The notes: a model not told the origin generated them from the letters alone. A stretch of DNA of 57,101 nt from an uncultured Pirellula sp. (GCA_964633125.1 CAZWDN010000003.1:1-57101); one strand, 5' to 3'. Shown: positions 14,263 through 27,591, counted from the stretch's first letter. Translations and numbers: made by a program.

Positions 14263-15000
14263 TTACGGCACATTGTGAAACACGAACTGCATGAGGTTCT
14301 TCGTGCCGATCGTGCCGGCGGTCGAGAGCACTTCGCCGGCTTGAAAGCCCGCCGCCTGACCGTAATGCTCGGCCAGCGCGCGAACGCGCGAGAACACATG
14401 CGATTTGGCCGGCGGAAACTGCGTGGCGTAGCAACGAATACTGTCGAGCTTTTGCTCCAACGTTTCGGAGATATCCACGACGACGTGCCCCGCCCCCGGC
14501 GGCAACTCCAGCGAGCTGAAGTTGAGCGTGTAGTACAAGAGCGACGGCACCGTATGCACGGGCAGGCCTTCGAAATGCTCGTCCCATTTCGTGAGCCGCG
14601 AATAGAACACGGCCCCCTCGGTAATCAGCATCGCTTGATGATGGTCGGGCGACGCCAGCGGCGTCTTCTCGCCGAAGCCGATGATCAGCCGCGGCCGGAA
14701 CTTGCGAAACTGCTTCGCCAGCGCCGTACGGGCCTCGAACGAATCGAACAAGCGCCGATTGGGCAAATCGAGTTGCACGCGCGCGTGAACGCCGAGCGTT
14801 GCGGCGGCCGCGCGAGCTTCGGCGGCCCGCACTTCGGGGCCGGGCGAAAGCGGCGTCGGTTCGCCGTCGGTCAGATCGATAATGCCGACCTTGAACCCCT
14901 GCTTTACGAGCGAGGCCAACGTCCCGCCGCAAGCAATCTCCACATCATCGGGATGCGCCCCGACGGCAATCACATCAAGCTTCAAATCATCTTCGGCCAT
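14263..15000 (-). CDS. bshB1: PIG-L family deacetylase, BshB1-like
   Basis: [26 protein letters not shown] and SPDH motifs. Confidence 0.75.
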
Positions 15001-15015
15001 GGAACACATTCGCGG

Positions 15016-15523
15016 ATCAGAGAAGGAGATAGGGAGATCGGAGGAGATATTGGAGACGGGAGATCGAGCTAATATTTCGGTGCGTGAGCTTCCAAGCCGA
15101 CGCGCCGAAAGTCGGCCTTGTCCTTGAAAAAAGTGACGAGCAAACCTGTCTTGAGTCCCGCCGCCTTGAGATACGAACGGAGTTGCGAGTAGTGAGCCTT
15201 CGTCAACTTCTCCACGGCTTTCAATTCCACAATCAGACTGTCGCGAACCACTAGGTCGAGTCGGTGCCTACCGACGAGTTCGCTGTTGTAGCAGATATCA
15301 ATTTCGTATTCGGTTTTGAATGGAATCTCGGAATTCTTCAAATCAACAGCTAATGCCCGATGGCAAATATTTTCCAAAAAGCCGGGACCAAGCGCCTTAT
15401 GGACGCGAATGATGGACGCGATCACCTCCTGCGAAAGCTTGTCGACGGAATAGTCTTTGAGAGGTTCTCGCCCGTCCCGTCTTACCCGATCTCCAGAATC
15501 TCCGGCCATCCCCTTCTCTGAAA
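15016..15523 (-). mobile_element. GxxExxY cassette bounded by imperfect inverted purine/pyrimidine arms
   Basis: tcagagaagg at 15017 and its reverse complement at 15512-15521, with ggagat-periodic arms. The interior is visibly more AT-rich than the flanks. Confidence 0.55.
15069..15509 (-). CDS. GxxExxY protein (PD-(D/E)XK-like)
   Basis: [14 protein letters not shown] (motif Tyr replaced by Cys), RLDLVV...IVELKAV, and QLRSYLK...GLLVTF. Confidence 0.85.
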
Positions 15524-15526
15524 AAG

Positions 15527-16789
15527 CTACGCAGCCGGCTTTACGACGGAAAGGAGAAAGGTCGGGTTGAGGGCGTCGAAGCGGATGCGTTCTAGCTGGT
15601 GGGTGCCGCGGGCCACGTTAAGCATCCAAACGTTCGCATGGCCGGCCTTGCGTTGAAGCGTGGCTTGCAACTCGGCAAGGTTTTCAATGCTGCCGGTATT
15701 GGCGACCAGCCGGCCGCCGGGCTTGAGGCGCTCGTAAGCCAAATCGACCAAACGGCCGATCTCGCGCCCCAGGCCGCCGACGAACACCGCGTCGGGATCA
15801 GGCAACGCGGCCCAAGCTTCGGGCGCTTGGCCGAGTACCGGCTGCAAGTTGCGCACCCCGAAGCGCTCGGCGTTCGATACGATCAGCCCGTGATCGCCGG
15901 GGTCCATTTCAATGGCGTAGGTCGTGCCGCCGGAAGCGATCTTCGCCGCCTCGATCGCCACGGAGCCGCTTCCCGCGCCGATGTCCCACACAATGCTGCG
16001 CGGGCCCAGGTCCATTTCCGCCAAGGCCCAGGTGCGCACTTCGGCCGGCGTGAGCAGCCCCTTCTTCGGCTTGGCTTGCTGGAACATCTCGTCGGGGTTG
16101 CCGAACAGCCGCTGGCCGATCGCTTCCGCCGGCCGATCCGGCACGTTCGGCTTGCGCACCAAGATCATGACGTTCAGCGGACCAAACTCTTCGGCGGCGA
16201 TCTCCTTGAGTTCGCCTTGCGTTACACATTCATCCGGCGAGCCGAGATTTTCGCAGACGTAGGCGGTGAAGTAGTCGATGCCGCGCTCGAGCAGCGCCTT
16301 GGCGACGCCCGCCGGCGAATGTTGCTCGCTCGTAAACAGACCGACTTTCTCCGCCGAGCGAATGCGCTCGACCACATGCTCCAGCGTGTGGCTCGCTAGG
16401 TTCGTAAGATACGCCTCTTCCCAATTCTCCTTTACGCGCGCAAACGCCAACTGCATGCTGCTCACATGCGGCACGACGTCGAACCGATTCTTGCCGAGCT
16501 TTTCGCACAGGAAACGCGAGATGCCGTAGAAGAGCGGATCGCCCGACACAAGCACCACGGCCGTGCCCGACGCGTGCGCCCTCAAGCGGGCGACGACCGG
16601 TTCTAAGTTGGCCCCCAACACGACGCGCTCGGCCGACGACTTCGGAATGAGCCCGAGCGTGTGGTCGCCGCCGACCAAGAGCGAAGCGGACGTGATGAGC
16701 CCTCGAGCGGCGGCGGTGATGCCGTCGAAGCCGTCGTCGCCGATGCCGATGATGTAGATCTTGCCGCCCGCCTGCGAATCGTTAGCCAC
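15527..16789 (-). CDS. cbiET: Bifunctional precorrin-6Y C5,15-methyltransferase (CbiE-CbiT/CobL)
   Basis: IYIIGIG, VLVSGDPLFYG and VSSMQLAFAR (CbiE); VWDIGAGSGSVAIE and PDAVFVGG (CbiT). Confidence 0.9.
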   Translation of the reverse strand: MANDSQAGGKIYIIGIGDDGFDGITAAARGLITSASLLVGGDHTLGLIPKSSAERVVLGANLEPVVARLRAHASGTAVVLVSGDPLFYGISRFLCEKLGKNRFDVVPHVSSMQLAFARVKENWEEAYLTNLASHTLEHVVERIRSAEKVGLFTSEQHSPAGVAKALLERGIDYFTAYVCENLGSPDECVTQGELKEIAAEEFGPLNVMILVRKPNVPDRPAEAIGQRLFGNPDEMFQQAKPKKGLLTPAEVRTWALAEMDLGPRSIVWDIGAGSGSVAIEAAKIASGGTTYAIEMDPGDHGLIVSNAERFGVRNLQPVLGQAPEAWAALPDPDAVFVGGLGREIGRLVDLAYERLKPGGRLVANTGSIENLAELQATLQRKAGHANVWMLNVARGTHQLERIRFDALNPTFLLSVVKPAA

Positions 16790-17001
16790 GGATTGGTCCT
16801 ACGAGTGTGAGTACCGCCGCACGTGTCGGCAGTTGGAAATGGCACGGTGAAAAGGCATGGAATAGCGCATTGTTCCTGCCGGGCTCGGGAAGTGTCAAGC
16901 GCGGCCGGCTTCACCGCTCGGCGCCGTGCATTGAATCACGCCGTCGGGCGCGGTAGAACGACGAACTTCTCCGAACTGAAACCTCGCACCCTCGCCGCCC
17001 G

Positions 17002-17991
17002 ATGAATAAACCTCGCGTACTCATCACGCCGCCGACGCTCGATCGTCACGCCGGTCCGTATTACGACGTCTTGACCGCCGCCGGCTGCGAAGTGATCTAT
17101 CCCGATCTGCAGGCCGATCTGATGCGGCCGGAGGTGCTCGTCGAGCACTTAAAAGGAATCGATGCCGTGCTTTGCAGCGTCGAGCCGTATTCGCGCGACG
17201 TCCTAAATCGCAGCAAACTCCGCTGCGTCGCCCGCGTCGGCGTCGGGTACGACTCGGTCGACGTGGCGGCCGCCACCGACTTCGGCGTGCCGGTTTGCAT
17301 CACGCCGGGCACCAATGAAAACTCCGTGGCCGAACAGGCGTTCGCCTTGATCTTCAGCGTGTTTCGCGAGATCGCCGTGCGCGACGGCGAGATTCGGGCC
17401 GGCGGCTGGCGTCGCAACAGCGTCCGCCGATTGGCCGGCAACACCCTCGGGCTGGTCGGCCTCGGCCGCATCGGCAAGGCGATGGTCCCCCGCGCGCACG
17501 GCCTGGGGCTCAAGGTCGTCGCCTACGATCCCTATGCCGACCAGACGTTTGCCGCGACGCACGACATCCGCCTTTGCACGTTTGAAGAATTGCTCGCCGT
17601 ATCCGACGTCGTGAGCCTGCACATGCCCTGCACCGCCGAAACGACCGACCTCATCAATCGGCGCTCGCTCGGCCTGATGAAGCGCGATGCCGTATTGATC
17701 AACACCTCGCGCGGCGGACTCGTCGATGAAGACGCGCTCTTCGAAGCCCTCGCGGAAGGTCGCATTTTCGGCGCGGGCCTCGACGTGCTCAAGCAAGAAC
17801 CCCCGCCGAAGAACCATCCGTTCTTCGCGTTGAAGAACGTGACGCTTGCGCCGCACATGGGGGGCATCGATCAAACCGCGCTCGACGCCATGGCCAAGCT
17901 CGCGGCCGAGTGTATCGTGAAACTAAGCCAAGGCGAAAACCCCGCGGGGTGCGTCGTCAATTCGCAGATTATGCCCGGTTGGAAGTGGTAG
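17002..17991 (+). CDS. D-isomer-specific 2-hydroxyacid dehydrogenase (phosphoglycerate dehydrogenase family)
   Basis: RVGVGYD, GLVGLGRIG, INTSRGG, GLDV..QEP and PHMGG motifs. Confidence 0.9.
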   Translation: MNKPRVLITPPTLDRHAGPYYDVLTAAGCEVIYPDLQADLMRPEVLVEHLKGIDAVLCSVEPYSRDVLNRSKLRCVARVGVGYDSVDVAAATDFGVPVCITPGTNENSVAEQAFALIFSVFREIAVRDGEIRAGGWRRNSVRRLAGNTLGLVGLGRIGKAMVPRAHGLGLKVVAYDPYADQTFAATHDIRLCTFEELLAVSDVVSLHMPCTAETTDLINRRSLGLMKRDAVLINTSRGGLVDEDALFEALAEGRIFGAGLDVLKQEPPPKNHPFFALKNVTLAPHMGGIDQTALDAMAKLAAECIVKLSQGENPAGCVVNSQIMPGWKW

Positions 17992-18075
17992 ACCGCCGGG
18001 CCGTCGAGTTAGAATGCGAGCCTTCTTCGTAGCCGCGCAGGCACGTTGATTCCCGCCTTCCTCGAGACCCCGCCG

Positions 18076-21000
18076 ATGCAAGTCGTTCGCGTCGCTTGGG
18101 CGACTACGATTCTCGCCGCCCTCGTCACGTTCTCGCTCTCCGACGCGCTCCGTGCCGCGGAACCGGTCGACGATATCGTCTCGGCGCCGCTGTCGCCGGA
18201 AGAATCGCGCCGGGCGATCGTCGTGCGGCCGGGCTTCACGGTCGAACTCGTCGCCCATGAGCCGCTGGTGGTCGATCCCGTGGCCATTGCCTGGGACGCG
18301 CAGGCCCGGCTGTGGGTCGTCGAAATGAACGACTATCCGCTCGGGCTCGACGGCCAAGGCAAGCCCGGCGGCCGCGTGAAGATTCTCACCGACGACGACG
18401 GCGACGGACGTTACGACCGCGCAACGACGTTCTTGGAAGGTCTGAAGTTTCCGACCGCCGTATTTCCCTGGCGCGACGGGGCACTGGTCTGCGCCGTACC
18501 AGAAATCCTTTTTGCGCGCGACACCGACGGCGACGGCCGAGCCGACGAGCGCCGCACGCTCTACACCGGCCTGCATGTCGGCAACCCGCAGCATTTGGCC
18601 AACGGCCTGCGCTGGGGGCTCGACGGCTGGATCCATTGCGCCAACGGCGCGACGAAAACCTCGGTGAAGTCGGTGCTCACGGGCAAGGAAGTCGACGTCG
18701 GCACGCGCGACTTCCGCATCCATCCCGGCACGGGCGATATCGAACCGCTGGCCGGGCGATCGCAATGCCTTCGCGAGAGCGACGATTGGGGCAACTGGTT
18801 CGGCAGTTCCAACAGCAACCCGCTCTACCACTTTCCGCTCGAAGAGCGTTATCTGCGTCGCAATCCGCACGCCGTTTATCCGCAGATTCAACAAGACGTC
18901 TCGGAAACGCCCGGTGCATCGCAGGTGTTTCCGGTGAGTCGCACCGTCGCGCGGTTCAACGATTTGAGCCGAGCCAATCGCTTTACGTCGGCCTGCAGCG
19001 CGACGATCTACCGCGATGAACTTCTGGGACGCGAATTCTACGGCAACTCATTCGTATGCGAACCGGTACACAACTTAATCCATCGCGAAATCCTCACGCC
19101 GGTCGGCGCAACTTTCACCAGCCGCAAGCCTGCCGACGAAGCCCGCACGGAGTTTCTCGCTTCCAGCGACAATTGGTTCCGCCCCTCCATGGTGCGCACC
19201 GGCCCCGACGGCGCTCTGTGGATCACCGACATGTACCGCTTGGTGATCGAGCATCCCGAATGGATTCCGAAAGATTGGCAAGCTAAGCTCGACCTCCGCG
19301 CCGGCAGCGACAAGGGGCGCATCTATCGCGTCTATCCGTCGGCGCTGAAGCCCTGGCCGATCGAAAAGCTTCACGACCTCGGGCCGAAGGAACTCGTCGC
19401 CAAGCTCGCCGGCGGCAACGGCGTCGTGCGCGAACTCGCCATGCAACTCCTCGTCGAGCGTTATACGGGGCACACAACCCGCACGCCGGAAGTCGGGCAG
19501 GTCGCCGATGCTTTGAACGCAGTCTTCCGCGAATCGGCGCGGGCAACGGCCCGGCTCGACGCGCTCTGCACCCTGGCGCTGCTCGACGACGAACTCGACA
19601 CGCTCGTCCTCCGCAAGGCCTTGGCCGACGAACACCCGGCCGTGCGGCGCTGGGCGTTGCGACTCGTCGACGCGGAGTTTCTCAAGCTCGACAAGCAATT
19701 GCTCCCCGCCGTGCTCGCCGCGGCCCGCGATCCGGATGCGGGCGTACGACTCCAAGCGGCCTGCGCGTTGGGCGACATCGACGACGAGCGATGCGCCGAC
19801 GCGTTGGGACGTCTGGCCGTCGTCGACTCCGATCCTTTCCGGACGGCCGCCGTGCAAAGTAGCCTGACGAAGAAGAATATCGCCGTCGCGGCGGCGGCGG
19901 GCCTCGACGAACTCATGCAATCCACCGACAAGCGACCGGCCGTCGCCCCGTTCGTCGACGCCGCGGCGGGCTACCAATCGCCCGAGGCGCTGGCCGTCGT
20001 AATTTCCGCCGCCGTATCGCACCCCGTCGGAGTCAATGTGGAAGGCATCAGTGAACTGTTTGCCGGTCTGACACGGCATCGGCTGACGCCCGAGAAGTTG
20101 CGAGAGTTCAAAAACCCGGCGCTCGACAAGCAACTCGACGGACTAGCGCGCGCGTTTCAAGGGGCGCGCGAGCGGATCGCCGACGAGAATCCTCGCGGCG
20201 ACAACGTCGGGCTTCGTCAGTCGTCGATGCGGCTGCTCGGCTTCGAGCCGGCGCGTCAGGCGGACGACGTGCGACTGCTGGCGAAGTTTCTCACTCCGCA
20301 AACCGCCGATCATCTCCAACAGGAAGCGATTGCCGCTCTCACGAGGTTCTCCACGCCGGAAGCCGCCGAAGCGTTGCTCGGCCGTTGGAGCAGCTTCCCG
20401 CCCGCCCGCAAGGCGCAAGTGCTCGACGCTTGCCTCAGCCGCAAAGATTCGACCAAACAATTGCTTGAAGCCGTCGCCGCGAAGCGCATTCCCGCCGCGG
20501 AGATCGACGTGACCCGTTCGCAACAACTGCTGACGCACGCCGACCCGGGCATTCGCGAACTTGCCGCACGAGCGTTGGCCGCGACCGTCAACAAGGACCG
20601 ACGCCGCGTGATCGACGAATACCAATCGGCGCTGACGCTCGCCGGTGATTCGGCGCGCGGACGGGAAGTGTTTACAAAGTCTTGTGCGACCTGTCACAAG
20701 CTCGGCGAAGTCGGACATGCCGTCGGTCCCGATCTGGCGGCGCTATCCGATCGTCGGCCGGAAACGTTGCTGGTGTCCGTGCTCGATCCCAATCGCGGCG
20801 TCGAATCGAAGTTCTTGGCGTACACCGCCGAAACGTCGGCCGGCCTCACCTTCACCGGCTTGCTCCTCTCCGAAGGAACGAACGACGTAACGCTCGCGCT
20901 AGCCGACGGGCGTAGGCAATCGATTCTCCGCAGCGAACTCGAATCGTTTGCGAGCACGGCCAAGTCGTTCATGCCCGAAGGGCTGGAAAAGGACCTCCCT

Positions 21001-21489
21001 CCGCAAAAGCTGGCGGATGTGCTGGCCTTCGTTGCAGCCACGCGCCCGACGCGTAAGACCTTTGCCGGCAATACGCCGCAGATCGTCAAGCCCGAGGCCT
21101 TGCGGGGCGAGTTTTACCTGCTGCCGGAACACGCCGAAATCTTCGGGCCGTCGCTCGTTTTCGAACCGAAGTTCTCCAACCTCGGCTATTGGCAAAGCGC
21201 CGCCGATCGGGCCGAATGGGAACTGGAAGTCGCGAAGGCCGGCCCCTATGACGTTTGGCTGGAGTATGCGCTGCCGCCAGGCGCCGGAGGAGAATTTGTG
21301 CTGGAGGCGACCGACTCCCGCTTGCGCGGCCGGAGCGCCGCGACCGGTTCCTGGGAGCGCTACAACACCGTCGCACTCGGACCGCTCACGCTCGCTGCGG
21401 GTCGACAACGCTTGGTCGTTCGAGCCGAGGGCGCTCCGAAGGAAGCTCTCTTCGACTTGAAATCAGTGCGGATCAAACCGCGCAATTAA
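18076..21489 (+). CDS. PVC-type heme-binding membrane-bound dehydrogenase-like protein
   Basis: Beta-propeller motifs (DPVAIAWD, GRVKIL.D.DGDG..D, DDWGNWF, GPDGAL), HEAT-like helices, CATCH...VGPDL, and a C-terminal CBM-like beta-sandwich. Confidence 0.85.
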   Translation: MQVVRVAWATTILAALVTFSLSDALRAAEPVDDIVSAPLSPEESRRAIVVRPGFTVELVAHEPLVVDPVAIAWDAQARLWVVEMNDYPLGLDGQGKPGGRVKILTDDDGDGRYDRATTFLEGLKFPTAVFPWRDGALVCAVPEILFARDTDGDGRADERRTLYTGLHVGNPQHLANGLRWGLDGWIHCANGATKTSVKSVLTGKEVDVGTRDFRIHPGTGDIEPLAGRSQCLRESDDWGNWFGSSNSNPLYHFPLEERYLRRNPHAVYPQIQQDVSETPGASQVFPVSRTVARFNDLSRANRFTSACSATIYRDELLGREFYGNSFVCEPVHNLIHREILTPVGATFTSRKPADEARTEFLASSDNWFRPSMVRTGPDGALWITDMYRLVIEHPEWIPKDWQAKLDLRAGSDKGRIYRVYPSALKPWPIEKLHDLGPKELVAKLAGGNGVVRELAMQLLVERYTGHTTRTPEVGQVADALNAVFRESARATARLDALCTLALLDDELDTLVLRKALADEHPAVRRWALRLVDAEFLKLDKQLLPAVLAAARDPDAGVRLQAACALGDIDDERCADALGRLAVVDSDPFRTAAVQSSLTKKNIAVAAAAGLDELMQSTDKRPAVAPFVDAAAGYQSPEALAVVISAAVSHPVGVNVEGISELFAGLTRHRLTPEKLREFKNPALDKQLDGLARAFQGARERIADENPRGDNVGLRQSSMRLLGFEPARQADDVRLLAKFLTPQTADHLQQEAIAALTRFSTPEAAEALLGRWSSFPPARKAQVLDACLSRKDSTKQLLEAVAAKRIPAAEIDVTRSQQLLTHADPGIRELAARALAATVNKDRRRVIDEYQSALTLAGDSARGREVFTKSCATCHKLGEVGHAVGPDLAALSDRRPETLLVSVLDPNRGVESKFLAYTAETSAGLTFTGLLLSEGTNDVTLALADGRRQSILRSELESFASTAKSFMPEGLEKDLPPQKLADVLAFVAATRPTRKTFAGNTPQIVKPEALRGEFYLLPEHAEIFGPSLVFEPKFSNLGYWQSAADRAEWELEVAKAGPYDVWLEYALPPGAGGEFVLEATDSRLRGRSAATGSWERYNTVALGPLTLAAGRQRLVVRAEGAPKEALFDLKSVRIKPRN

Positions 21490-21570
21490 CAATGTGGATT
21501 GGGTTGTGTGCCGCTGCCTGCTTGCCCGGCAGTGCGACCGGAAGTTGGATTTAAACCTTTGAGATATTCC

Positions 21571-24500
21571 ATGATGCTCGTCCGCCGGCGAATCCTGTTC
21601 CTCACCATTTTGGCCGTTGTTTTATGCAACGTCACTTTCGCATTCGCCGCCGACGAAGAGGATGAAGACGAACCGAAGGTCGCGCCGGGCCTCGTCGCTA
21701 CGTTCGCAACACGCGACCTTGCCGCGCCGGTCGCGGCACGCATCGACAACGAAGTGCAATACGTGTGGGGCGCCGCTCGGCCCGATCTGCGTTTGCCCGC
21801 CGGTCCGTTCGTTGCGCGCTGGCAAGGGCTCCTTTTCACGCAAGCAGCGGGCGACTACCGATTCCACATCTATGCCGGCGGAGGGCGCGTCGAACTGAAG
21901 CTGAAGGGGCAACCGCTGCTTGCCGTCGAAGCGGCGGAACCGGCCTGGCATGTCAGCGAGCCGGTCAAGCTCGGCTACGCCCACTCGCCGTTGGAGTTGA
22001 CGTTTCAAAAGACCGGTGCCGACGCCGTACTGAAGCTTGATTGGAGCGGTCCGCAATTCGCCGTCGAACCGATTCCCGATCGGCACCTCTTTCACGACCC
22101 CCAGCAAACGCCAAGTTCGGCGTTCGACGAAGGGCGCTCGCTCGTGCGCATGCTCCGCTGCGCGGCCTGCCACCAAATACCGACGGAGCAAGACCGCCTG
22201 CCGGCCCCGGCGCTGACGCACCTCCGCGGCAACCTGCACCCGGAGTGGATCGTGGACCATTTGACGACCTCCGCCACCCCATACCAGCCCCGACGCGCAA
22301 GCGAGGGGACTTCGGCGGATGACGCGTCGCGAACGCCCCCCTCACCCCCGGCCCCTCTCCCGCAAGGGGCGAGGGGAGATACGGCGCTCACGCGCCGCAT
22401 GCCGCATTTCGCTCTCTCGCAAGTCGACGCCGAGGCCCTCGCCGCCTACCTGCTTGATGCCTCCCAGCCGTCGCCGGAGGTAAAGCTTCCCAAAGTACAG
22501 GCCGACGAACCGAAGCCGGCCGCCGCCGCGCCGGTGCATCTCGATCCGCGCGCCGCGGAGGAAGCCAAACGCGTCAAAGCCAAAGCGAAAGCGCGCACTT
22601 CCGCCAGCGTGCGCGAAGGAGAACTCTTGGCTCGCAGCGTCGGCTGCTTGGCCTGCCATACGATCGGTTCGCTCGGCACGGCGACCCTCTTCACCGGCGG
22701 CGACCTCTCGACCATCGCGCAAAAGCGTCCCGCCGAGTTTTTTCTGCGCTGGCTCGACAATCCGTCGGCGCTCAATGCGCAGCACCGGATGCCGGTCTTC
22801 AAATTGTCAAAGCTGGAACGCGACGATCTGACGGCGTATTTGAGCACGCTAAGAGTCGCCAACGCCCCTGCGACGACACACCAGCCCCGACGCGCAAGCG
22901 AGGGGACTTCGGCGGATGACGCGTCGCGAACGCCCCCCTCACCCCCGGCCCCTCTCCCGCAAGGGGCGAGGGGAGATAAGAAGACGGAACCCAAGAGCGA
23001 CAAGGCGCTCGTCGAGCGCGGGCGCAAACTGTTTGTCTCGCAATCGTGCACGGCCTGCCATCGCGGACCGGTCGAATTGCCGCCGGCTAACGCCGCGCCG
23101 GCCCTGACCGCGTCGCGCATCGCGCAGTTCGGCGACGATCCGGCTTCCTCCTGTTTCGGCGAACCGCGCGCCGAGAAGCCGAGGCCCGGATACCGCCTCG
23201 ATGCGCGACGAAGGCAAGCGATCGTCGAGTACCTCCACATGGCGATGGCGCCCGAGACAAGCGAATCGCTCGCGCTCGACGATCGCTTCGTGCTGCAAGA
23301 GCGTAACTGCACGGCCTGCCATGCCCGCGGCCTGGGGCCAGGGCTCGCCGGCGAAGCGCCGCGCATCACGGCGGCCGAACCGGAACTCTTGGCCGTGCAG
23401 CCGGCGCTGCTGCCGCCGTCGCTCAACGGCGTCGGCGACAAACTCACCGAAGCCGCTCTCGATGACGCCCTCCTCTTAAAGCACAATCCGCTGCGCCCTT
23501 GGCTTCGTGTACGCATGCCGAAGTTCCCGCTGGCCGCGGCAGAACTTGCGTCGCTAAAGGGACATCTCGTCAACCACGATCGCATTCCCGACCTGCCGCC
23601 GCCGCCCGAGGCCGCAACGGCCGGCGACGACGAAACCGCCCAACGTCTCGCGGCCCGCCGTCTGGTGACGGCCGACGGCTTCGGCTGTACGAGTTGCCAT
23701 AAGATCGGCTCGTCGGAACCGGCCGGCATCACGAACATCGCGGCCCACGGCACCGACCTCACGCTCTTGGGCGACCGCATTCGCAAGCCGTGGTTCGACC
23801 GTTGGGTTCGCAATCCCTCGCGTATCATTCCCCGCATGGAGATGCCGGCGATCCAACTACCGGTCAAGGGAGTGATGCACGACGACGTCAACCTGCAACT
23901 GGCGAGCGTTTGGAAAGTGCTCAACGAGCCCGGCTTCACGCCGCCGCTGCCGAACCCCGTGCGGATCGTCCGTTCGCGCAACGTGCCCGGCATTAAGGAA
24001 CGGGCCAACATTCTGACCGACGTGTTCGTAGTCGACGGCAAAACCTACGACAGCGCGATCGTGATCGGCTTGCCGAACCGGCACAACGTGCTGTTCGACT
24101 TGGAAACGAATCACCTCGTCGCGTGGTGGACGGGCGATACGGCGCTGCAACGGACAAAAGGAAAAAGTTGGTACTGGGAAGTCGGCGGAGCGATGGTCCT
24201 TGCCCAGGACAGCGTCATCAAAGACCGATCGATCGCCTCGGAACTGCGCAAGCAAAATCGCGACCCGAACAGCGACGCCGAAGAAGGCCCATTTCCGACG
24301 TCGCAGAATCTTGCGCTGCTGGATCAGTTTGGGCATTCCGAAAATGGAGTCGACCTGAATTATCGCCTGTCGTTCGACGCTTCGTCGGCGAATGCCGAGC
24401 CAAACTTGACGGTACGGCAAAGCTTCGCGCCGATCGCCGGCGGATTCCGACGGCGTTGGGAAGTTCAAGGCAAGACTTCGCTTCCGCAACTCGCCTTGCT

Positions 24501-26187
24501 TGTAGCGGCCGGCAAACTGTTTCAGTTCGGCGACAACGATCGGTCCGTGGTCGCCGCGAGCCTGCCGGGCAAACCTCGCTTGATACTGCGATCGCCGGGA
24601 AATTGGCGCATCGACGCCGATGGCGGCGTTTTCGTCGATCTCGCAACGGCCGAATCGACCGTCATTGAAATCGACTACCTCGTCGACCTCCCCGTCGACA
24701 CGTTTCCCGTGGAAATGCCCGCTGTGCCGAACCCGCCTGCCGTAAAGATCAACGTCGTTCCCGGCTTCGAAGCGGTGCAGCTGCCGCTCGGCATTGCCGA
24801 AATGCCGACGGGCCTCGCTTGGCGCAAAGACGGTTCGCTCGTGCTCACTTCGCTCAAGGGGCGCGTAATCGTAGCGCGCGACACGAACGGCGACGGCCTC
24901 GAGGATCAACTCCAAACCGTCAGCGACGATCTCGCGGCGCCGTACGGGATCGCCGTCGCCGAAGAAGACGGCCGCGAGGTTCTCGACGTCGTCAACAAGT
25001 ATGCCCTACTCCGCCTCTTTGACGACGATGCCGACGGCTACTACGAACGCTCCGTCGTCGCCGCGAGCGGCTGGGGACACACGGAAGACTATCACGATTG
25101 GGCGGTCGGACTGCCGAAGATTCCCGGCGACAAGCTTGGCTATTACGTCGGCCTGCCGTGCCAGCAAGACGATCGCGCGCCGGCCAAGGCGGCGCTGCGC
25201 GGTCAAGGGCTCCGGCTCCTCGCACGTACGCCGACGCTCGATGACCCGCGCCGTTTCACCGTCGAACCGTTCTGTGGCGGCTTGCGCTTCCCGATGGGCC
25301 TGGCCGTGAACAAGGCCGGCGACCTCTTTGCGAGCGACAACCAAGGAAACTACAACCCGTTTAACGAGATCAACCACCTCGTCGACGGCAAGCGCTACGG
25401 CTTCATCAACAAGCTCGAAGCGAAGCCGGGCTTTTCGCCGCCGGTGGAATCGCCGGCCGTCGATCTGCCCCACCCCTGGACTCGCAGCGTGAACGGAATT
25501 TGCTTTCTCGACACTCCGGACAAGGTGCGCGCCGCGCGCAAGGCCGCCGGCGAAAGCGAAGACCTCTTCGGTCCCTTCGAAGGACACATGCTCGGCTGCG
25601 AGTTCAATTACCGCTCGCTGTTTAGGATGGCGCTCGAACAAGTCGACGGGGTCTATCAAGGATCGGCGTTCCCCCTCAACGAGTTCCCCGCAGTAGGCCA
25701 AGCGACCTTTGAAGGCCCGACGGTGTGCGAAGTCGCCCCGGACGGCGACCTCTACATCGGCAATCTCCAAGACAGCGGCTGGGGCGGCGGTCGCAACACA
25801 GGCTCGCTCGTGCGCATGCGACCGAGCGGCGAACTTCCGGCCGGCATGGCCGAGATCCGCGCCGAAACCGACGGCTTCACGATTCTGTTCACGCAACCCG
25901 TCAGCCGCGAAGCGGCGGCCGAGCGCGCCGCCTACACCATCGAAATGTTCCGCCGGATTTCCACGCCGCAGTACGGCGGCAACGACGTCGACCGCCAATC
26001 CGTCAAGGTGTTGCAAGCCCGGGTCGCCGACGACGGCCGGAGCGTGCGTCTCACCGTCGACAAATTGAAGCCCGGCTTCGTCTACGAGTTCCACTTGGCG
26101 AATCTCGCCCCGCGGGCTCCGACGGGGGAAGCGAAATTCTTTCCGGCCGAAGGCTTCTACACGCTGAAACGGCTGATTCTTCGATAA
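21571..26187 (+). CDS. Large penta-heme c-type cytochrome with PA14-like domain and dehydrogenase-like propeller
   Basis: Signal peptide, PA14-like F.ARWQG segment, five CxxCH motifs (CAACH, CLACH, CTACH, CTACH, CTSCH), and a C-terminal propeller (GLRFPMGL, DNQGNY). Confidence 0.8.
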   Translation: MMLVRRRILFLTILAVVLCNVTFAFAADEEDEDEPKVAPGLVATFATRDLAAPVAARIDNEVQYVWGAARPDLRLPAGPFVARWQGLLFTQAAGDYRFHIYAGGGRVELKLKGQPLLAVEAAEPAWHVSEPVKLGYAHSPLELTFQKTGADAVLKLDWSGPQFAVEPIPDRHLFHDPQQTPSSAFDEGRSLVRMLRCAACHQIPTEQDRLPAPALTHLRGNLHPEWIVDHLTTSATPYQPRRASEGTSADDASRTPPSPPAPLPQGARGDTALTRRMPHFALSQVDAEALAAYLLDASQPSPEVKLPKVQADEPKPAAAAPVHLDPRAAEEAKRVKAKAKARTSASVREGELLARSVGCLACHTIGSLGTATLFTGGDLSTIAQKRPAEFFLRWLDNPSALNAQHRMPVFKLSKLERDDLTAYLSTLRVANAPATTHQPRRASEGTSADDASRTPPSPPAPLPQGARGDKKTEPKSDKALVERGRKLFVSQSCTACHRGPVELPPANAAPALTASRIAQFGDDPASSCFGEPRAEKPRPGYRLDARRRQAIVEYLHMAMAPETSESLALDDRFVLQERNCTACHARGLGPGLAGEAPRITAAEPELLAVQPALLPPSLNGVGDKLTEAALDDALLLKHNPLRPWLRVRMPKFPLAAAELASLKGHLVNHDRIPDLPPPPEAATAGDDETAQRLAARRLVTADGFGCTSCHKIGSSEPAGITNIAAHGTDLTLLGDRIRKPWFDRWVRNPSRIIPRMEMPAIQLPVKGVMHDDVNLQLASVWKVLNEPGFTPPLPNPVRIVRSRNVPGIKERANILTDVFVVDGKTYDSAIVIGLPNRHNVLFDLETNHLVAWWTGDTALQRTKGKSWYWEVGGAMVLAQDSVIKDRSIASELRKQNRDPNSDAEEGPFPTSQNLALLDQFGHSENGVDLNYRLSFDASSANAEPNLTVRQSFAPIAGGFRRRWEVQGKTSLPQLALLVAAGKLFQFGDNDRSVVAASLPGKPRLILRSPGNWRIDADGGVFVDLATAESTVIEIDYLVDLPVDTFPVEMPAVPNPPAVKINVVPGFEAVQLPLGIAEMPTGLAWRKDGSLVLTSLKGRVIVARDTNGDGLEDQLQTVSDDLAAPYGIAVAEEDGREVLDVVNKYALLRLFDDDADGYYERSVVAASGWGHTEDYHDWAVGLPKIPGDKLGYYVGLPCQQDDRAPAKAALRGQGLRLLARTPTLDDPRRFTVEPFCGGLRFPMGLAVNKAGDLFASDNQGNYNPFNEINHLVDGKRYGFINKLEAKPGFSPPVESPAVDLPHPWTRSVNGICFLDTPDKVRAARKAAGESEDLFGPFEGHMLGCEFNYRSLFRMALEQVDGVYQGSAFPLNEFPAVGQATFEGPTVCEVAPDGDLYIGNLQDSGWGGGRNTGSLVRMRPSGELPAGMAEIRAETDGFTILFTQPVSREAAAERAAYTIEMFRRISTPQYGGNDVDRQSVKVLQARVADDGRSVRLTVDKLKPGFVYEFHLANLAPRAPTGEAKFFPAEGFYTLKRLILR
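22283..22381 (+). repeat. 99-bp intragenic palindromic element, copy 1
   Basis: Identical to 22880-22978. Read in frame within (Y)QPRRASEGTSADDASRTPPSPPAPLPQGARGD(T). Confidence 0.9.
22880..22978 (+). repeat. 99-bp intragenic palindromic element, copy 2
   Basis: Identical to copy 1 at an offset of 597 bp (199 codons). Confidence 0.9.
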
Positions 26188-26213
26188 ACTCGGCTCATCT
26201 CGGTCTCGGGTAC

Positions 26214-26349
26214 TTTTCAGAAAGGGAGATGTGGGGATGATGGGAGGTAAAGGGGAGGAAAACTATCAAGGGTACCGCCGTACCTAATTGCAGGTTTCTC
26301 TTTCAAATCCCCGACATCTCCGCCGTATCCCCCGATCTCCTTCTCTGAT
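26214..26349 (+). repeat. ORF-less hairpin element related to the GxxExxY cassette arms
   Basis: Ends in atctccttctctgat, an exact 15-nt match to the reverse complement of 15016-15030. The 5' arm ggagatgtggggat pairs with atccccgacatctcc. Confidence 0.7.
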
Positions 26350-26361
26350 TCTCAAGCCGCC

Positions 26362-27591
26362 ATGTCCGACCAGCCGCAGTTCTTGTTCATGACGTGTCAG
26401 GTCGGCGCCGAGCCTACGCTCAAGTCGGAAATGGCTCGCTACCGCCCGAACTTCCGCTTCGCCTATTCGCGGCCGGGTTTTCTCACGTTCAAGCTTCCCG
26501 ACAAGCACCACCTCGCGGACGACTTCGAACTGCATTCGGTCTTTGCCCGCGCATACGGTTTCTCGCTCGGCAAGGTGGCGGTCGCCGACGATCCGGCCTC
26601 GGCCGTGGCCGAAGTTTGGCGTTTAGCGGGCGAGCGCCCGTTCAAGGCTTTGCACGTTTGGCCCCGTGATCGACTCGCGCCCGGCGAACGCGGCTACGAA
26701 GTCGGACAGACCGACGAATCGCGGGCGGCGGAAATCATGTTGCGCTCGGCGGCACCGGCGAAGTTCGACGCGCTCCACAAAAAGCGCATCACGCAACCGG
26801 GCGACCTCGTGCTCGACGTGATCGTGATCGACCCCAAGCTCTGGTGGGTCGGCTACCATCGCGCCGGAAGTCCCGCCTCGCGCCGCGCCGGCGGCTTGTA
26901 CGACGATATCGAGCTGCCGTACGAAGCCGTATCGCGGGCGTATCTCAAGATGGAGGAATCGCTCCGCTGGTCGAAGTTGCCGGTGCGCAAGGGCGACCAC
27001 GCGGCCGAAATCGGCTGTGCCCCCGGCGGCTCGTGCCAAGCGTTGCTCAAACGCGGCCTTCTGGTCACAGGCATCGATCCGGCCGAAATGCATCCGGCGG
27101 TCCTCGATCATCCGAACTTCCGCCACCTGCAAATGCGCGGCGGCGACGTGAAGCGGCGAGAGTTTCGCGACGTCCGCTGGCTCATGACCGACATGAACGT
27201 GACGCCGACTTACACGCTCGACACGGTCGAAGGCATCGTGACGCATCGCGAAGTAAATATCGAAGGACTGCTGCTGACGCTCAAGCTGCTCTCGTGGGAA
27301 TATGCGGAACATGTTCCGGAATTCGTCGCGCGCGTGCAAAGCTGGGGCTACGACCATGTGCAATGCACGCAACTACAGCACAATCGACGAGAATTCTGCT
27401 TGGCGGCCATGCGCGGCGACGGCGCGCCGCCGGTCGCGCCATTACAGGAACGCGCCGAAGAGAAGCTGAAGCGGCTGGTGAAACGAAAGGCGTCGCCGGC
27501 CGACAAACGGGGCAAAGTGAAGAGTCGAGCGGCGGGCGCAAAGCCCGCTGCTCGCCCGAAGCGAACAACGCATAAGCCGCCGGACGAATAG
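26362..27591 (+). CDS. rlmM: RlmM-family (FtsJ-type) rRNA 2'-O-methyltransferase
   Basis: AVSRAYLKMEES, EIGCAPGGS, GIDPAEM and WLMTDMN motifs. Confidence 0.7.
   Translation: MSDQPQFLFMTCQVGAEPTLKSEMARYRPNFRFAYSRPGFLTFKLPDKHHLADDFELHSVFARAYGFSLGKVAVADDPASAVAEVWRLAGERPFKALHVWPRDRLAPGERGYEVGQTDESRAAEIMLRSAAPAKFDALHKKRITQPGDLVLDVIVIDPKLWWVGYHRAGSPASRRAGGLYDDIELPYEAVSRAYLKMEESLRWSKLPVRKGDHAAEIGCAPGGSCQALLKRGLLVTGIDPAEMHPAVLDHPNFRHLQMRGGDVKRREFRDVRWLMTDMNVTPTYTLDTVEGIVTHREVNIEGLLLTLKLLSWEYAEHVPEFVARVQSWGYDHVQCTQLQHNRREFCLAAMRGDGAPPVAPLQERAEEKLKRLVKRKASPADKRGKVKSRAAGAKPAARPKRTTHKPPDE

Follow-up and report, generated by a model that had tools for sequence, protein, structure and literature searches.

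The window, the whole analysed stretch of 57,101 nucleotides from an uncultured Pirellula sp. (5.9-Mb assembly in 682 contigs, designated G000), harbors a short element without a gene at positions 26214-26349. On the plus strand it reads TTTTCAGAAAGGGAGAT ... ATCTCCGCCGTATCCCCCGATCTCCTTCTCTGAT. Its ends are mutually reverse-complementary (CAGAGAAGGRGAT / ATCYCCTTCTCTG), and the entire element folds into one extended hairpin with imperfect pairing (the minimum free energy of the RNA is -64.8 kcal/mol, with z = -4.1 relative to shuffled sequences). It is positioned 27 nt downstream of the stop codon of a cytochrome gene, and the ATG of an rlmM-like gene follows 13 nt downstream of its 3' arm. 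The features at this position are:

21499-26187, plus strand: upstream gene for a 1562-aa multi-haem cytochrome c protein with five CxxCH motifs
26214-26263, plus strand: 5' purine-rich arm of the gene-less hairpin (nhmmer 23.0 bits; pairs with 26303-26349 in the fold)
26264-26302, plus strand: loop of 39 nt with a small inner stem, GGGTACCGCCGTACC (from the fold)
26303-26349, plus strand: 3' pyrimidine-rich arm (nhmmer 30.7 bits)
26362-27591, plus strand: downstream gene for an FtsJ-type methyltransferase, with RlmM as top family match below the curated cut-off

In the 5' arm, the terminus TTTTCAGAAAGG is combined with four units of the GGRGAT type (GGGAGAT, GGGGAT, GGGAGGT and GGGGAGG); the 3' arm contains ATCYCC four times together with its terminus CCTTCTCTGAT. 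The original prediction had placed the element between a penta-heme gene and rlmM, in agreement with the CxxCH motifs upstream and the best family match downstream. It had also assumed about 70 nt between the arms; the arms as defined by the profile leave a loop of only 39 nt. This loop has no match in the interior of the second element described below or elsewhere in the genome, and it is unrelated to the loops of other copies, including the orthologous loops in the related genomes G005, G002 and G001. A search of Rfam over positions 14800-26600 gave 0 matches at E <= 1.

A longer element with the same type of ends, the GxxExxY cassette, is located on the opposite strand of the window and encloses a small gene:

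14263-15009, minus strand: bshB1-like PIG-L deacetylase gene, whose start lies 7 nt beyond the 3' arm of the cassette
15016-15524, minus strand: GxxExxY cassette, TTTTTCAGAGAAGGGGAT ... ATCTCCTCCGATCTCCCTATCTCCTTCTCTGAT when read from 15524 to 15016
15016-15062, minus strand: 3' arm of the cassette, GATCTCCCGTCTCCAATATCTCCTCCGATCTCCCTATCTCCTTCTCTGAT (nhmmer 27.7 bits)
15069-15509, minus strand: GxxExxY / PDDEXK_3 open reading frame (ORF), 146 aa from the ATG in the arm (PF13366, 1.9e-34; TIGR04256, 6e-34)
15489-15524, minus strand: 5' arm of the cassette, TTTTCAGAGAAGGGGATGGCCGGAGATTCTGGAGAT (from the sequence and the arm profile)
15527-16789, minus strand: cbiE/cbiT fusion gene upstream of the cassette, with its stop codon 3 nt before the 5' arm

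Pairwise alignments confirmed that the short element and the cassette, read on the minus strand, share their termini and that the last 15 nt are identical. This 15-mer, ATCTCCTTCTCTGAT, occurs in two perfect copies in the window (expected 0.04), which are the only two in the assembly. Both arms of the short element match the profile built from family arms, and together they form a stem, which places it in the hairpin family of the GxxExxY cassette. That the short element is a sister of the cassette arms without a gene of its own is certain. The pair had been proposed to consist of a cassette and a MITE-like derivative. The relationship holds in that the short element is a sister within a dispersed family, but it is not a deletion derivative, as its loop shares nothing with the interior of the cassette. 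The common orientation of both elements had been regarded as informative as well. Because the termini are inverted repeats, either strand presents the purine arm first and the pyrimidine arm last, and hence the shared orientation carries no information. A T-run beside the 5' arm was considered as an orientation marker and was consistent in five copies, but it is reversed in the copy on contig C464. This marker was dropped, as in many copies the run is part of the inverted terminus (TTTCAG...CTGAAA).

The arm profile was built from an alignment of 18 arms from G000, whose consensus is tTCATCYCCCacATCTCC-N4-6-ATCYCCcnnATCTCCTTCTCTG. A family member consists of two arms of ~50 bp, each with four GGRGAT units (ATCYCC on the other strand) at spacings of about 9, 11 and 9 nt, and the arm terminates in TTCTCTG. 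Across the family the arm termini read CAGAGAAGG / CCTTCTCTG. The genome-wide search for further copies suggested with the original prediction was productive: nhmmer detected 24 arms in G000, and the family-bearing genomes described below contain 34-87 matches to a unit pattern. Seven clear arm pairs, the cassette included, are found in G000, together with two weaker ones at C467 and C454. The solo arms of this genome are mostly located at contig ends, fused to other repeat modules. Paired copies lie 6-27 nt from the adjacent stop and start codons. Sixteen of 19 hairpins are positioned between co-directional genes, and some copies lie between convergent genes. Loop lengths range from 7 to 134 nt, and among 25 loops compared no two match at E <= 0.01. 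Even the similarity of orthologous loops of G000 and G005 is random or nearly so (z from -0.4 to 2.3). As this is compatible with neutral decay at a dS of ~0.65, hypermutation of the loops is not claimed.

Several hairpins of related genomes contain additional DNA between the arms. At L104 (G004:C8:2500-4000) family arms at about 460-520 and 1005-1047 bracket ~490 bp of AT-richer DNA with a 93-aa ORF on the opposite strand, which encodes two hydrophobic helices (membrane) and has no Pfam match. At L105 (G005:C5:234300-235900) a purine arm at ~330-380 and a pyrimidine arm at ~1230-1270 lie ~850 bp apart and enclose a 232-aa ORF, again without a Pfam match; this may be either a true cassette or two solo arms. 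At L090 (G004:C45:66150-66650) a GGGGAT-type hairpin contains in its loop a further hairpin of a second family, with ATTCACAACGGAG... units, and the units of the nested hairpin are those of the arms of the second GxxExxY cassette of G004, L019. Hairpin loops seem to serve as sites where additional elements land.

The distribution of gene and hairpins was analyzed in six Pirellulales genomes of one genus (G000-G005) and in 25 genomes of other genera. All comparisons involve species representatives and not strains, and the genomes, being related, do not constitute independent samples. A species tree from two proteins grouped ((G000,G005) 100/100, (G002,G001) 93/93), with G004 and G003 outside. 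A cassette with unit-built arms is located at the syntenic site, ~11 kb from rlmM, in G000, G001, G002, G004 and G005. The family was searched with the pattern ATCYCC-N2-6-ATCYCC-N2-7-ATCYCC, and the reversed pattern served as control. Matches numbered 34 in G000 (reversed control 0), 37 in G001, 39 in G002, 87 each in G004 and G005, and 0 in G003, and the reversed pattern gave 0-1 in the six genomes of the genus. The 25 genomes of other genera contained 0-3 matches, which are chance matches. Judged by these counts, the family is confined to five of the six genomes of one Pirellulales genus, namely those with the cassette; within the genus this co-occurrence rests on one phylogenetic contrast, G003 versus the rest. 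G003 belongs to the same genus, is 99% complete and lacks a PF13366 gene. At one of its junctions (L094, G003:C22:27230-27560), which corresponds to the L079 site, it contains a degenerate remnant of a purine arm and a pyrimidine arm (GGAAAGTGGGAGGATGGGAATGAC ... CATTCCCTCGGCCATATCC). This remnant suggests that the family was formerly present in G003 and later decayed.

A survey of 25 related genomes showed that almost all PF13366 genes lie between inverted arms with three or four units of 8-9 nt. The type of unit varies among these cassettes: CACAGAG, CGCAGAG, CACGGAG, CGCAGAT, CACGGAT and CGCAAAG. Pairing of their flanks was determined with a local aligner, as an RNA duplex search on whole flanks over-extended. 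Triplets of a second unit family, CRCRGAG, are absent in five of six genomes without PF13366 (the exception, G011, is 75% complete) and were found in 18 of 25 genomes that have this gene; counts are given here in place of a significance test because the genomes are related. G000 and G005 each contain 23 CRCRGAG arrays without having a cassette of the CRCRGAG type. The correspondence between protein clade and unit type (GFLEKVYENAL with ...GAT, PGLLESAYE with ...GAG) was considered as evidence for recognition of the units by the protein, and was rejected because gene and arms are inherited together.

To locate hairpins gained or lost between species, concatenated flanks from G000 were searched with BLAST against G001-G005 and the junctions were aligned. 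The hairpins were distributed as follows:

rlmM site: filled in G000, G005, G002 and G001; unrelated spacers in G004 and G003
L081 site: filled in G005 only; 0-20 nt from stop to ATG in the other five, with an overlap in G000 (ATAATG)
C98 site: filled in G000 and G005 only; spacers of 30-45 nt in G002, G003 and G004
C101 site: filled in all five cassette genomes (decayed in G004, L109); contiguous in G003
C42 site: filled in all five cassette genomes (G001, G002 and G004 by BLAST gap sizes only); contiguous in G003
L079 site: filled in G005, G004 and G001; empty in G000 and G002; degenerate relic in G003
C467 site: filled in G000, G005 and G001, and probably in G004 (gap size); empty or other in G002

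This pattern indicates that, as the genus evolved, hairpins were both inserted into short spacers between genes and lost from them. L081 represents a clean insertion restricted to G005. Neither a target-site duplication nor a fixed insertion sequence was readable when filled and empty sites were compared, as the spacers have diverged. Target-site duplications, which the original prediction had proposed to tabulate, were thus not visible, and no transposase was found either. Larger differences occur at two further junctions. At the junction C328:2177-2293 of G000, additional DNA of 1.5-1.9 kb in G001, G002 and G004 is missing from G000 and G005, where the junction measures 115 nt and 348 nt, respectively. 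The 348 nt of G005 include a hairpin, and a hairpin is also located within the additional DNA of G004. The junction L091 (G002:C24:357300-357960) contains an unrelated, coding-looking insert of ~470 bp, and the corresponding sites harbor hairpins in G005 and G004 and ~25 nt in G000, G001 and G003.

Sequence changes are shared between the cassette and the hairpins of the same genome. The cassette of G001 contains GGAGAC/GTCTCC units and the termini TTAGGAGAC...GTCTCCTAAT in both arms, and the G001 hairpins at the orthologous C101, C467 and C491 sites show cassette-like GGAGAC units and termini. Triplets of GTCYCC were matched 46 times in G001 and 0-4 times in G002, G003 and G004; the 11 matches in G005 derive mainly from one tandem array. 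A second example is G005, where CAGCAAGGG...CCCTTGCTG is found in both arms of the cassette and of the hairpins orthologous to C98 and C101, at termini which read CAGAGAAGG...CCTTCTCTG in G000, G002, G001 and G004. The copies of G004 have AAGGGGGAT in common in the first unit. Identical multi-base changes at unlinked loci and in both arms are not independent mutations, and thus copy-to-copy correction or replacement is needed. However, G001 retains 37 matches of the ATCYCC type, among them its rlmM hairpin with GGAGAT units. This indicates that some hairpins do not follow the cassette.

Compensatory change between the arms, which the original prediction had asked for, is present. Covariation was analyzed on 29 arm pairs, each joined by an artificial GAAA linker in place of its loop, and was scored on 15 pairs only, because MAFFT misplaces inner units. 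In the arm alignment 88.5% of the cells are paired. Two-sided changed cells numbered 38, compared to 23.8 +/- 6.4 in shuffles (5 of 500 reach 38), and the covariation score was 0.392 versus 0.315 (0 of 500), with slid controls at 0.19-0.25. Selection for an RNA stem is expected to skew the mismatches strongly. In the transcribed sense, the 19 oriented hairpins contain 66 mismatches of the G-U type and 62 of the A-C type, and 30 cassettes of relatives likewise show no clear asymmetry between G-U and A-C. The mismatches are thus strand-symmetric, and a structure at the DNA level is favored. The original prediction had taken the consistent sense orientation as a hint of function or spread at the RNA level. 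This is not supported by the mismatch counts, and the orientation itself follows from the palindromic ends.

The gene within the cassette encodes the only PF13366 protein of the G000 assembly, and PF13366 is the sole Pfam match of the ORF. Its first ATG is located inside the first unit of the 5' arm (AAGGGGATGG, positions 15489-15509 of the window, minus strand). The starts of the orthologues vary and lie further in, which leaves the start assigned in G000 uncertain, and translation might begin at a GTG at QEVIAS instead. The AlphaFold (AF2) model of the protein, calculated from 31 sequences, reached a pLDDT of 93.6. No solved structure was matched by a sequence search of the PDB. A fold search gave Cas4 SSO0001 (E 1e-4), lambda-type exonucleases and the nuclease domain of AddB as top matches, with Hjc lower. 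The predicted fold is therefore Cas4/RecB-like. The catalytic D...ELK (D...E-x-K) is invariant in 31 homologues, and dN/dS values of <= 0.24, where dS was estimable, indicate purifying selection on the gene. Based on the confident model, the fold, the invariant catalytic residues and dN/dS, the gene looks like that of a working nuclease. In G000 alone, the name-giving tyrosine is replaced by a cysteine (GFLENIC, positions 15345-15365, minus strand), whereas the four orthologues keep the tyrosine. This substitution may impair the nuclease of G000. G000 also has the fewest pattern matches among the five cassette genomes and is the most fragmented assembly of the five.

The GxxExxY gene differs from its neighbors in the extent of divergence between G000 and G005. 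Protein identity is 95% for the flanking cbiET and bshB1 and only 55% for the GxxExxY gene, and nucleotide identity is 86.5-88% for the flanks and 56.5% for the gene. The flanks show a dS of 0.58-0.72 and an identity of 65-72% at four-fold sites, whereas dS is saturated in the GxxExxY gene and four-fold site identity amounts to 38% (10/26). GC3 is 0.62 in the gene and 0.78-0.82 in the flanks. The five syntenic GxxExxY proteins form one clade (100/99), in which the groups (G000,G002) with 97/94 and (G005,G001) with 99/95 conflict with the species tree. A grouping of G000 with G005 is rejected for this gene by the AU test (p = 0.0018). The divergence of the gene and the conflict between the trees are taken to mean that old cassette alleles were replaced or sorted at a site that remained fixed.

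The co-occurrence of gene and repeat, their joint changes and the gain and loss at junctions point to a hitherto undescribed DNA element composed of a nuclease and a repeat. We consider the chances slightly better than even that gene and hairpins constitute a DNA-level system of a nuclease and its cognate repeat, with a layout like that of REP/RAYT or NTS/Ssn. In such a system the nuclease would bind the repeated units with several protomers per arm and would cut the extruded hairpin or a single-stranded form. Repair from other copies would then homogenise the arms through copy-to-copy correction, and hairpins would occasionally be placed in, or removed from, short inter-gene spacers. It is conceivable, if doubtful, that this mini-nuclease and its unit-built hairpins go further and represent a new class of self-maintaining DNA element without a transposase or recombinase, which acts by cutting, arm rewriting, seeding and deletion of hairpins and swapping of cargo. 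Host repair would in this case rewrite arms throughout the genome, as the switches of units and termini at orthologous sites might reflect, and the cargo of the loops would be exchanged in situ, for which the discordant nuclease gene with saturated silent sites, the foreign ORFs and the nested hairpins could be examples.

Alternatively, the hairpins may be cis-elements of the host, either binding arrays for a DNA-binding protein of the host or operon punctuation, with GxxExxY as a passenger in one loop and with homologous gene conversion and selection as the cause of the similarity between copies. The loops do accept other inserts (L104 of G004, L105 of G005 and the nested hairpin at L090 of G004), several other families of hairpin repeats occur in mosaics in the same genomes, and the position of 16 of 19 hairpins between co-directional genes, about 6-27 nt from stop and start codons, would suit such a role. 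Retention of the arms at orthologous sites with randomised loops and spacers fits selection on each locus, the rlmM hairpin of G001 did not take part in the unit switch of its cassette, and ordinary RecA-dependent gene conversion could homogenise the arms without a nuclease. However, gene and hairpins have an equally narrow distribution, with G003 lacking both and keeping only the decayed relic, and the unit switches are common to cassette and hairpins. Nearly every GxxExxY gene in 25 related genomes possesses its own unit-built inverted arms, which is unexpected for a random passenger, and a host element of importance to each junction should not be absent at the orthologous junctions of sister species. 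A role as host cis-element is therefore considered unlikely.

The long stable stem predicted for the short element (-64.8 kcal/mol, z = -4.1) and the location of most copies inside co-directional gene pairs could also point to an element of the polycistronic transcript, for example an RNase III site or an mRNA stabiliser, with the cassette as an ORF in the loop. The intervening sequences of 23S rRNA have a long stem and in some cases an ORF in the loop, a layout similar to that of the cassette. Function in the transcript appears quite improbable, as G-U mismatches are not in excess over A-C mismatches in the transcribed sense (66 versus 62), the element is symmetric so that both strands fold alike, the sequence of the GGRGAT unit is itself conserved beyond pairing, Rfam gave no match and some copies lie between convergent genes. 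Least probable, with hardly any likelihood in our view, is an ordinary MITE, that is, a deletion derivative moved by a classical transposase encoded elsewhere, with GxxExxY as the cargo of one copy. Such elements would share with the hairpins the terminal inverted repeats, the small size, the intergenic location, a presence that differs among species and copies at contig ends. No target-site duplication is visible at filled and empty sites, a comparison limited by the divergence of the spacers, and the 25 loops provide no common internal sequence. None of the examined arm pairs encloses a transposase. Furthermore, the arms are built from units whose type differs by GxxExxY clade, and hence they travel with the nuclease gene and not with a transposase.

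A nuclease with its cognate repeat, the reading we prefer, has counterparts in known systems. In REP/REPIN with RAYT, as in the present family, a low-copy gene for a DNA-cutting enzyme (cutting is predicted here) is bracketed by an inverted, hairpin-forming repeat, gene-less extragenic copies of the repeat occur in tens between genes and often in operons, and within a lineage the gene is found together with the repeat and evolves along with it. The enzymes are different: RAYT is an HUH Y1 transposase similar to the TnpA of IS200/IS605, whereas the present protein is a PD-(D/E)XK member (PF13366/TIGR04256) with a Cas4/RecB-like predicted fold. REP is a palindrome of 20-40 nt with a GTAG head, whereas the present arms are ~50 bp long and contain four 6-nt units, and variable loops able to hold cargo are a feature of the present family and not of REP. 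In the NTS/SRM and Ssn system, the gene of a small nuclease has copies of the dispersed hairpin repeat recognised by this nuclease on either side (PMC11893778). Of the ssn homologues, 42% are flanked on both sides, and 81% of the repeat-rich genomes have the gene (PMC11893778). The arrangement of a nuclease gene flanked by a dispersed hairpin-forming repeat is the same here, where the repeat would likewise be recognised. However, Ssn is a GIY-YIG nuclease and the present protein, of the PD-(D/E)XK type, has no GIY-YIG match; NTS/SRM is a single short hairpin and not an array of units; and cleavage and a role in transformation have been demonstrated for Ssn, whereas cutting is a prediction for the present protein.

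Other repeats resemble the family in fewer respects. MITEs, Correia/NEMIS, RPE and ERIC are also short, gene-less, intergenic inverted repeats whose presence varies among relatives. In contrast to MITE-type repeats, the present family revealed no target-site duplication, common interior or transposase parent, and its arms follow a nuclease cassette. The intervening sequences of 23S rRNA share the long imperfect stem whose loop is either short or occupied by a small ORF, but they are located inside rRNA, whereas the present element lies between protein-coding genes and shows no sign of selection on an RNA strand.

PF13366/GxxExxY is a very large family that is still annotated as 'function unknown', as it was in the 2012 survey of PD-(D/E)XK proteins. 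A literature search found nothing on the function of GxxExxY, and the word itself occurs in only three papers of the library searched. The genus described here supplies sister species with gain and loss of hairpins at defined junctions, hairpins that track their own cassette in unit type and terminus, and turnover of the gene inside conserved flanks. The proposed link predicts that the G001 protein prefers GGAGAC units and the proteins of the other genomes GGAGAT. If it is true, an orphan family of widespread nucleases would gain a function, the systems of a nuclease plus cognate repeat would be extended by a third kind of enzyme, and small sequence-programmable nucleases might become possible, as with Ssn.

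Like BIMEs, the arms also occur in mosaics with other repeat modules (G005 and G000). In G005 (L049-L082) about two thirds of the arms are solo and part of fixed mosaics, in which GACTCCGGTCGCTCACGCTCCCGGCTCGCC precedes the arm, GGCCGGCCAAAAATCGCCTGGAAAT follows it, and GGCACACGGAGTGTGCC palindromes and GCGCCAAGACGCAGAGACGC units are close by. As many arms of G005 are solo in such mosaics, the arm itself could be the unit in place of the hairpin. In G000, BIME-like mosaics interrupt the assembly and are found at the ends of the contigs C427, C450, C659, C265, C473, C405, C448 and C130.
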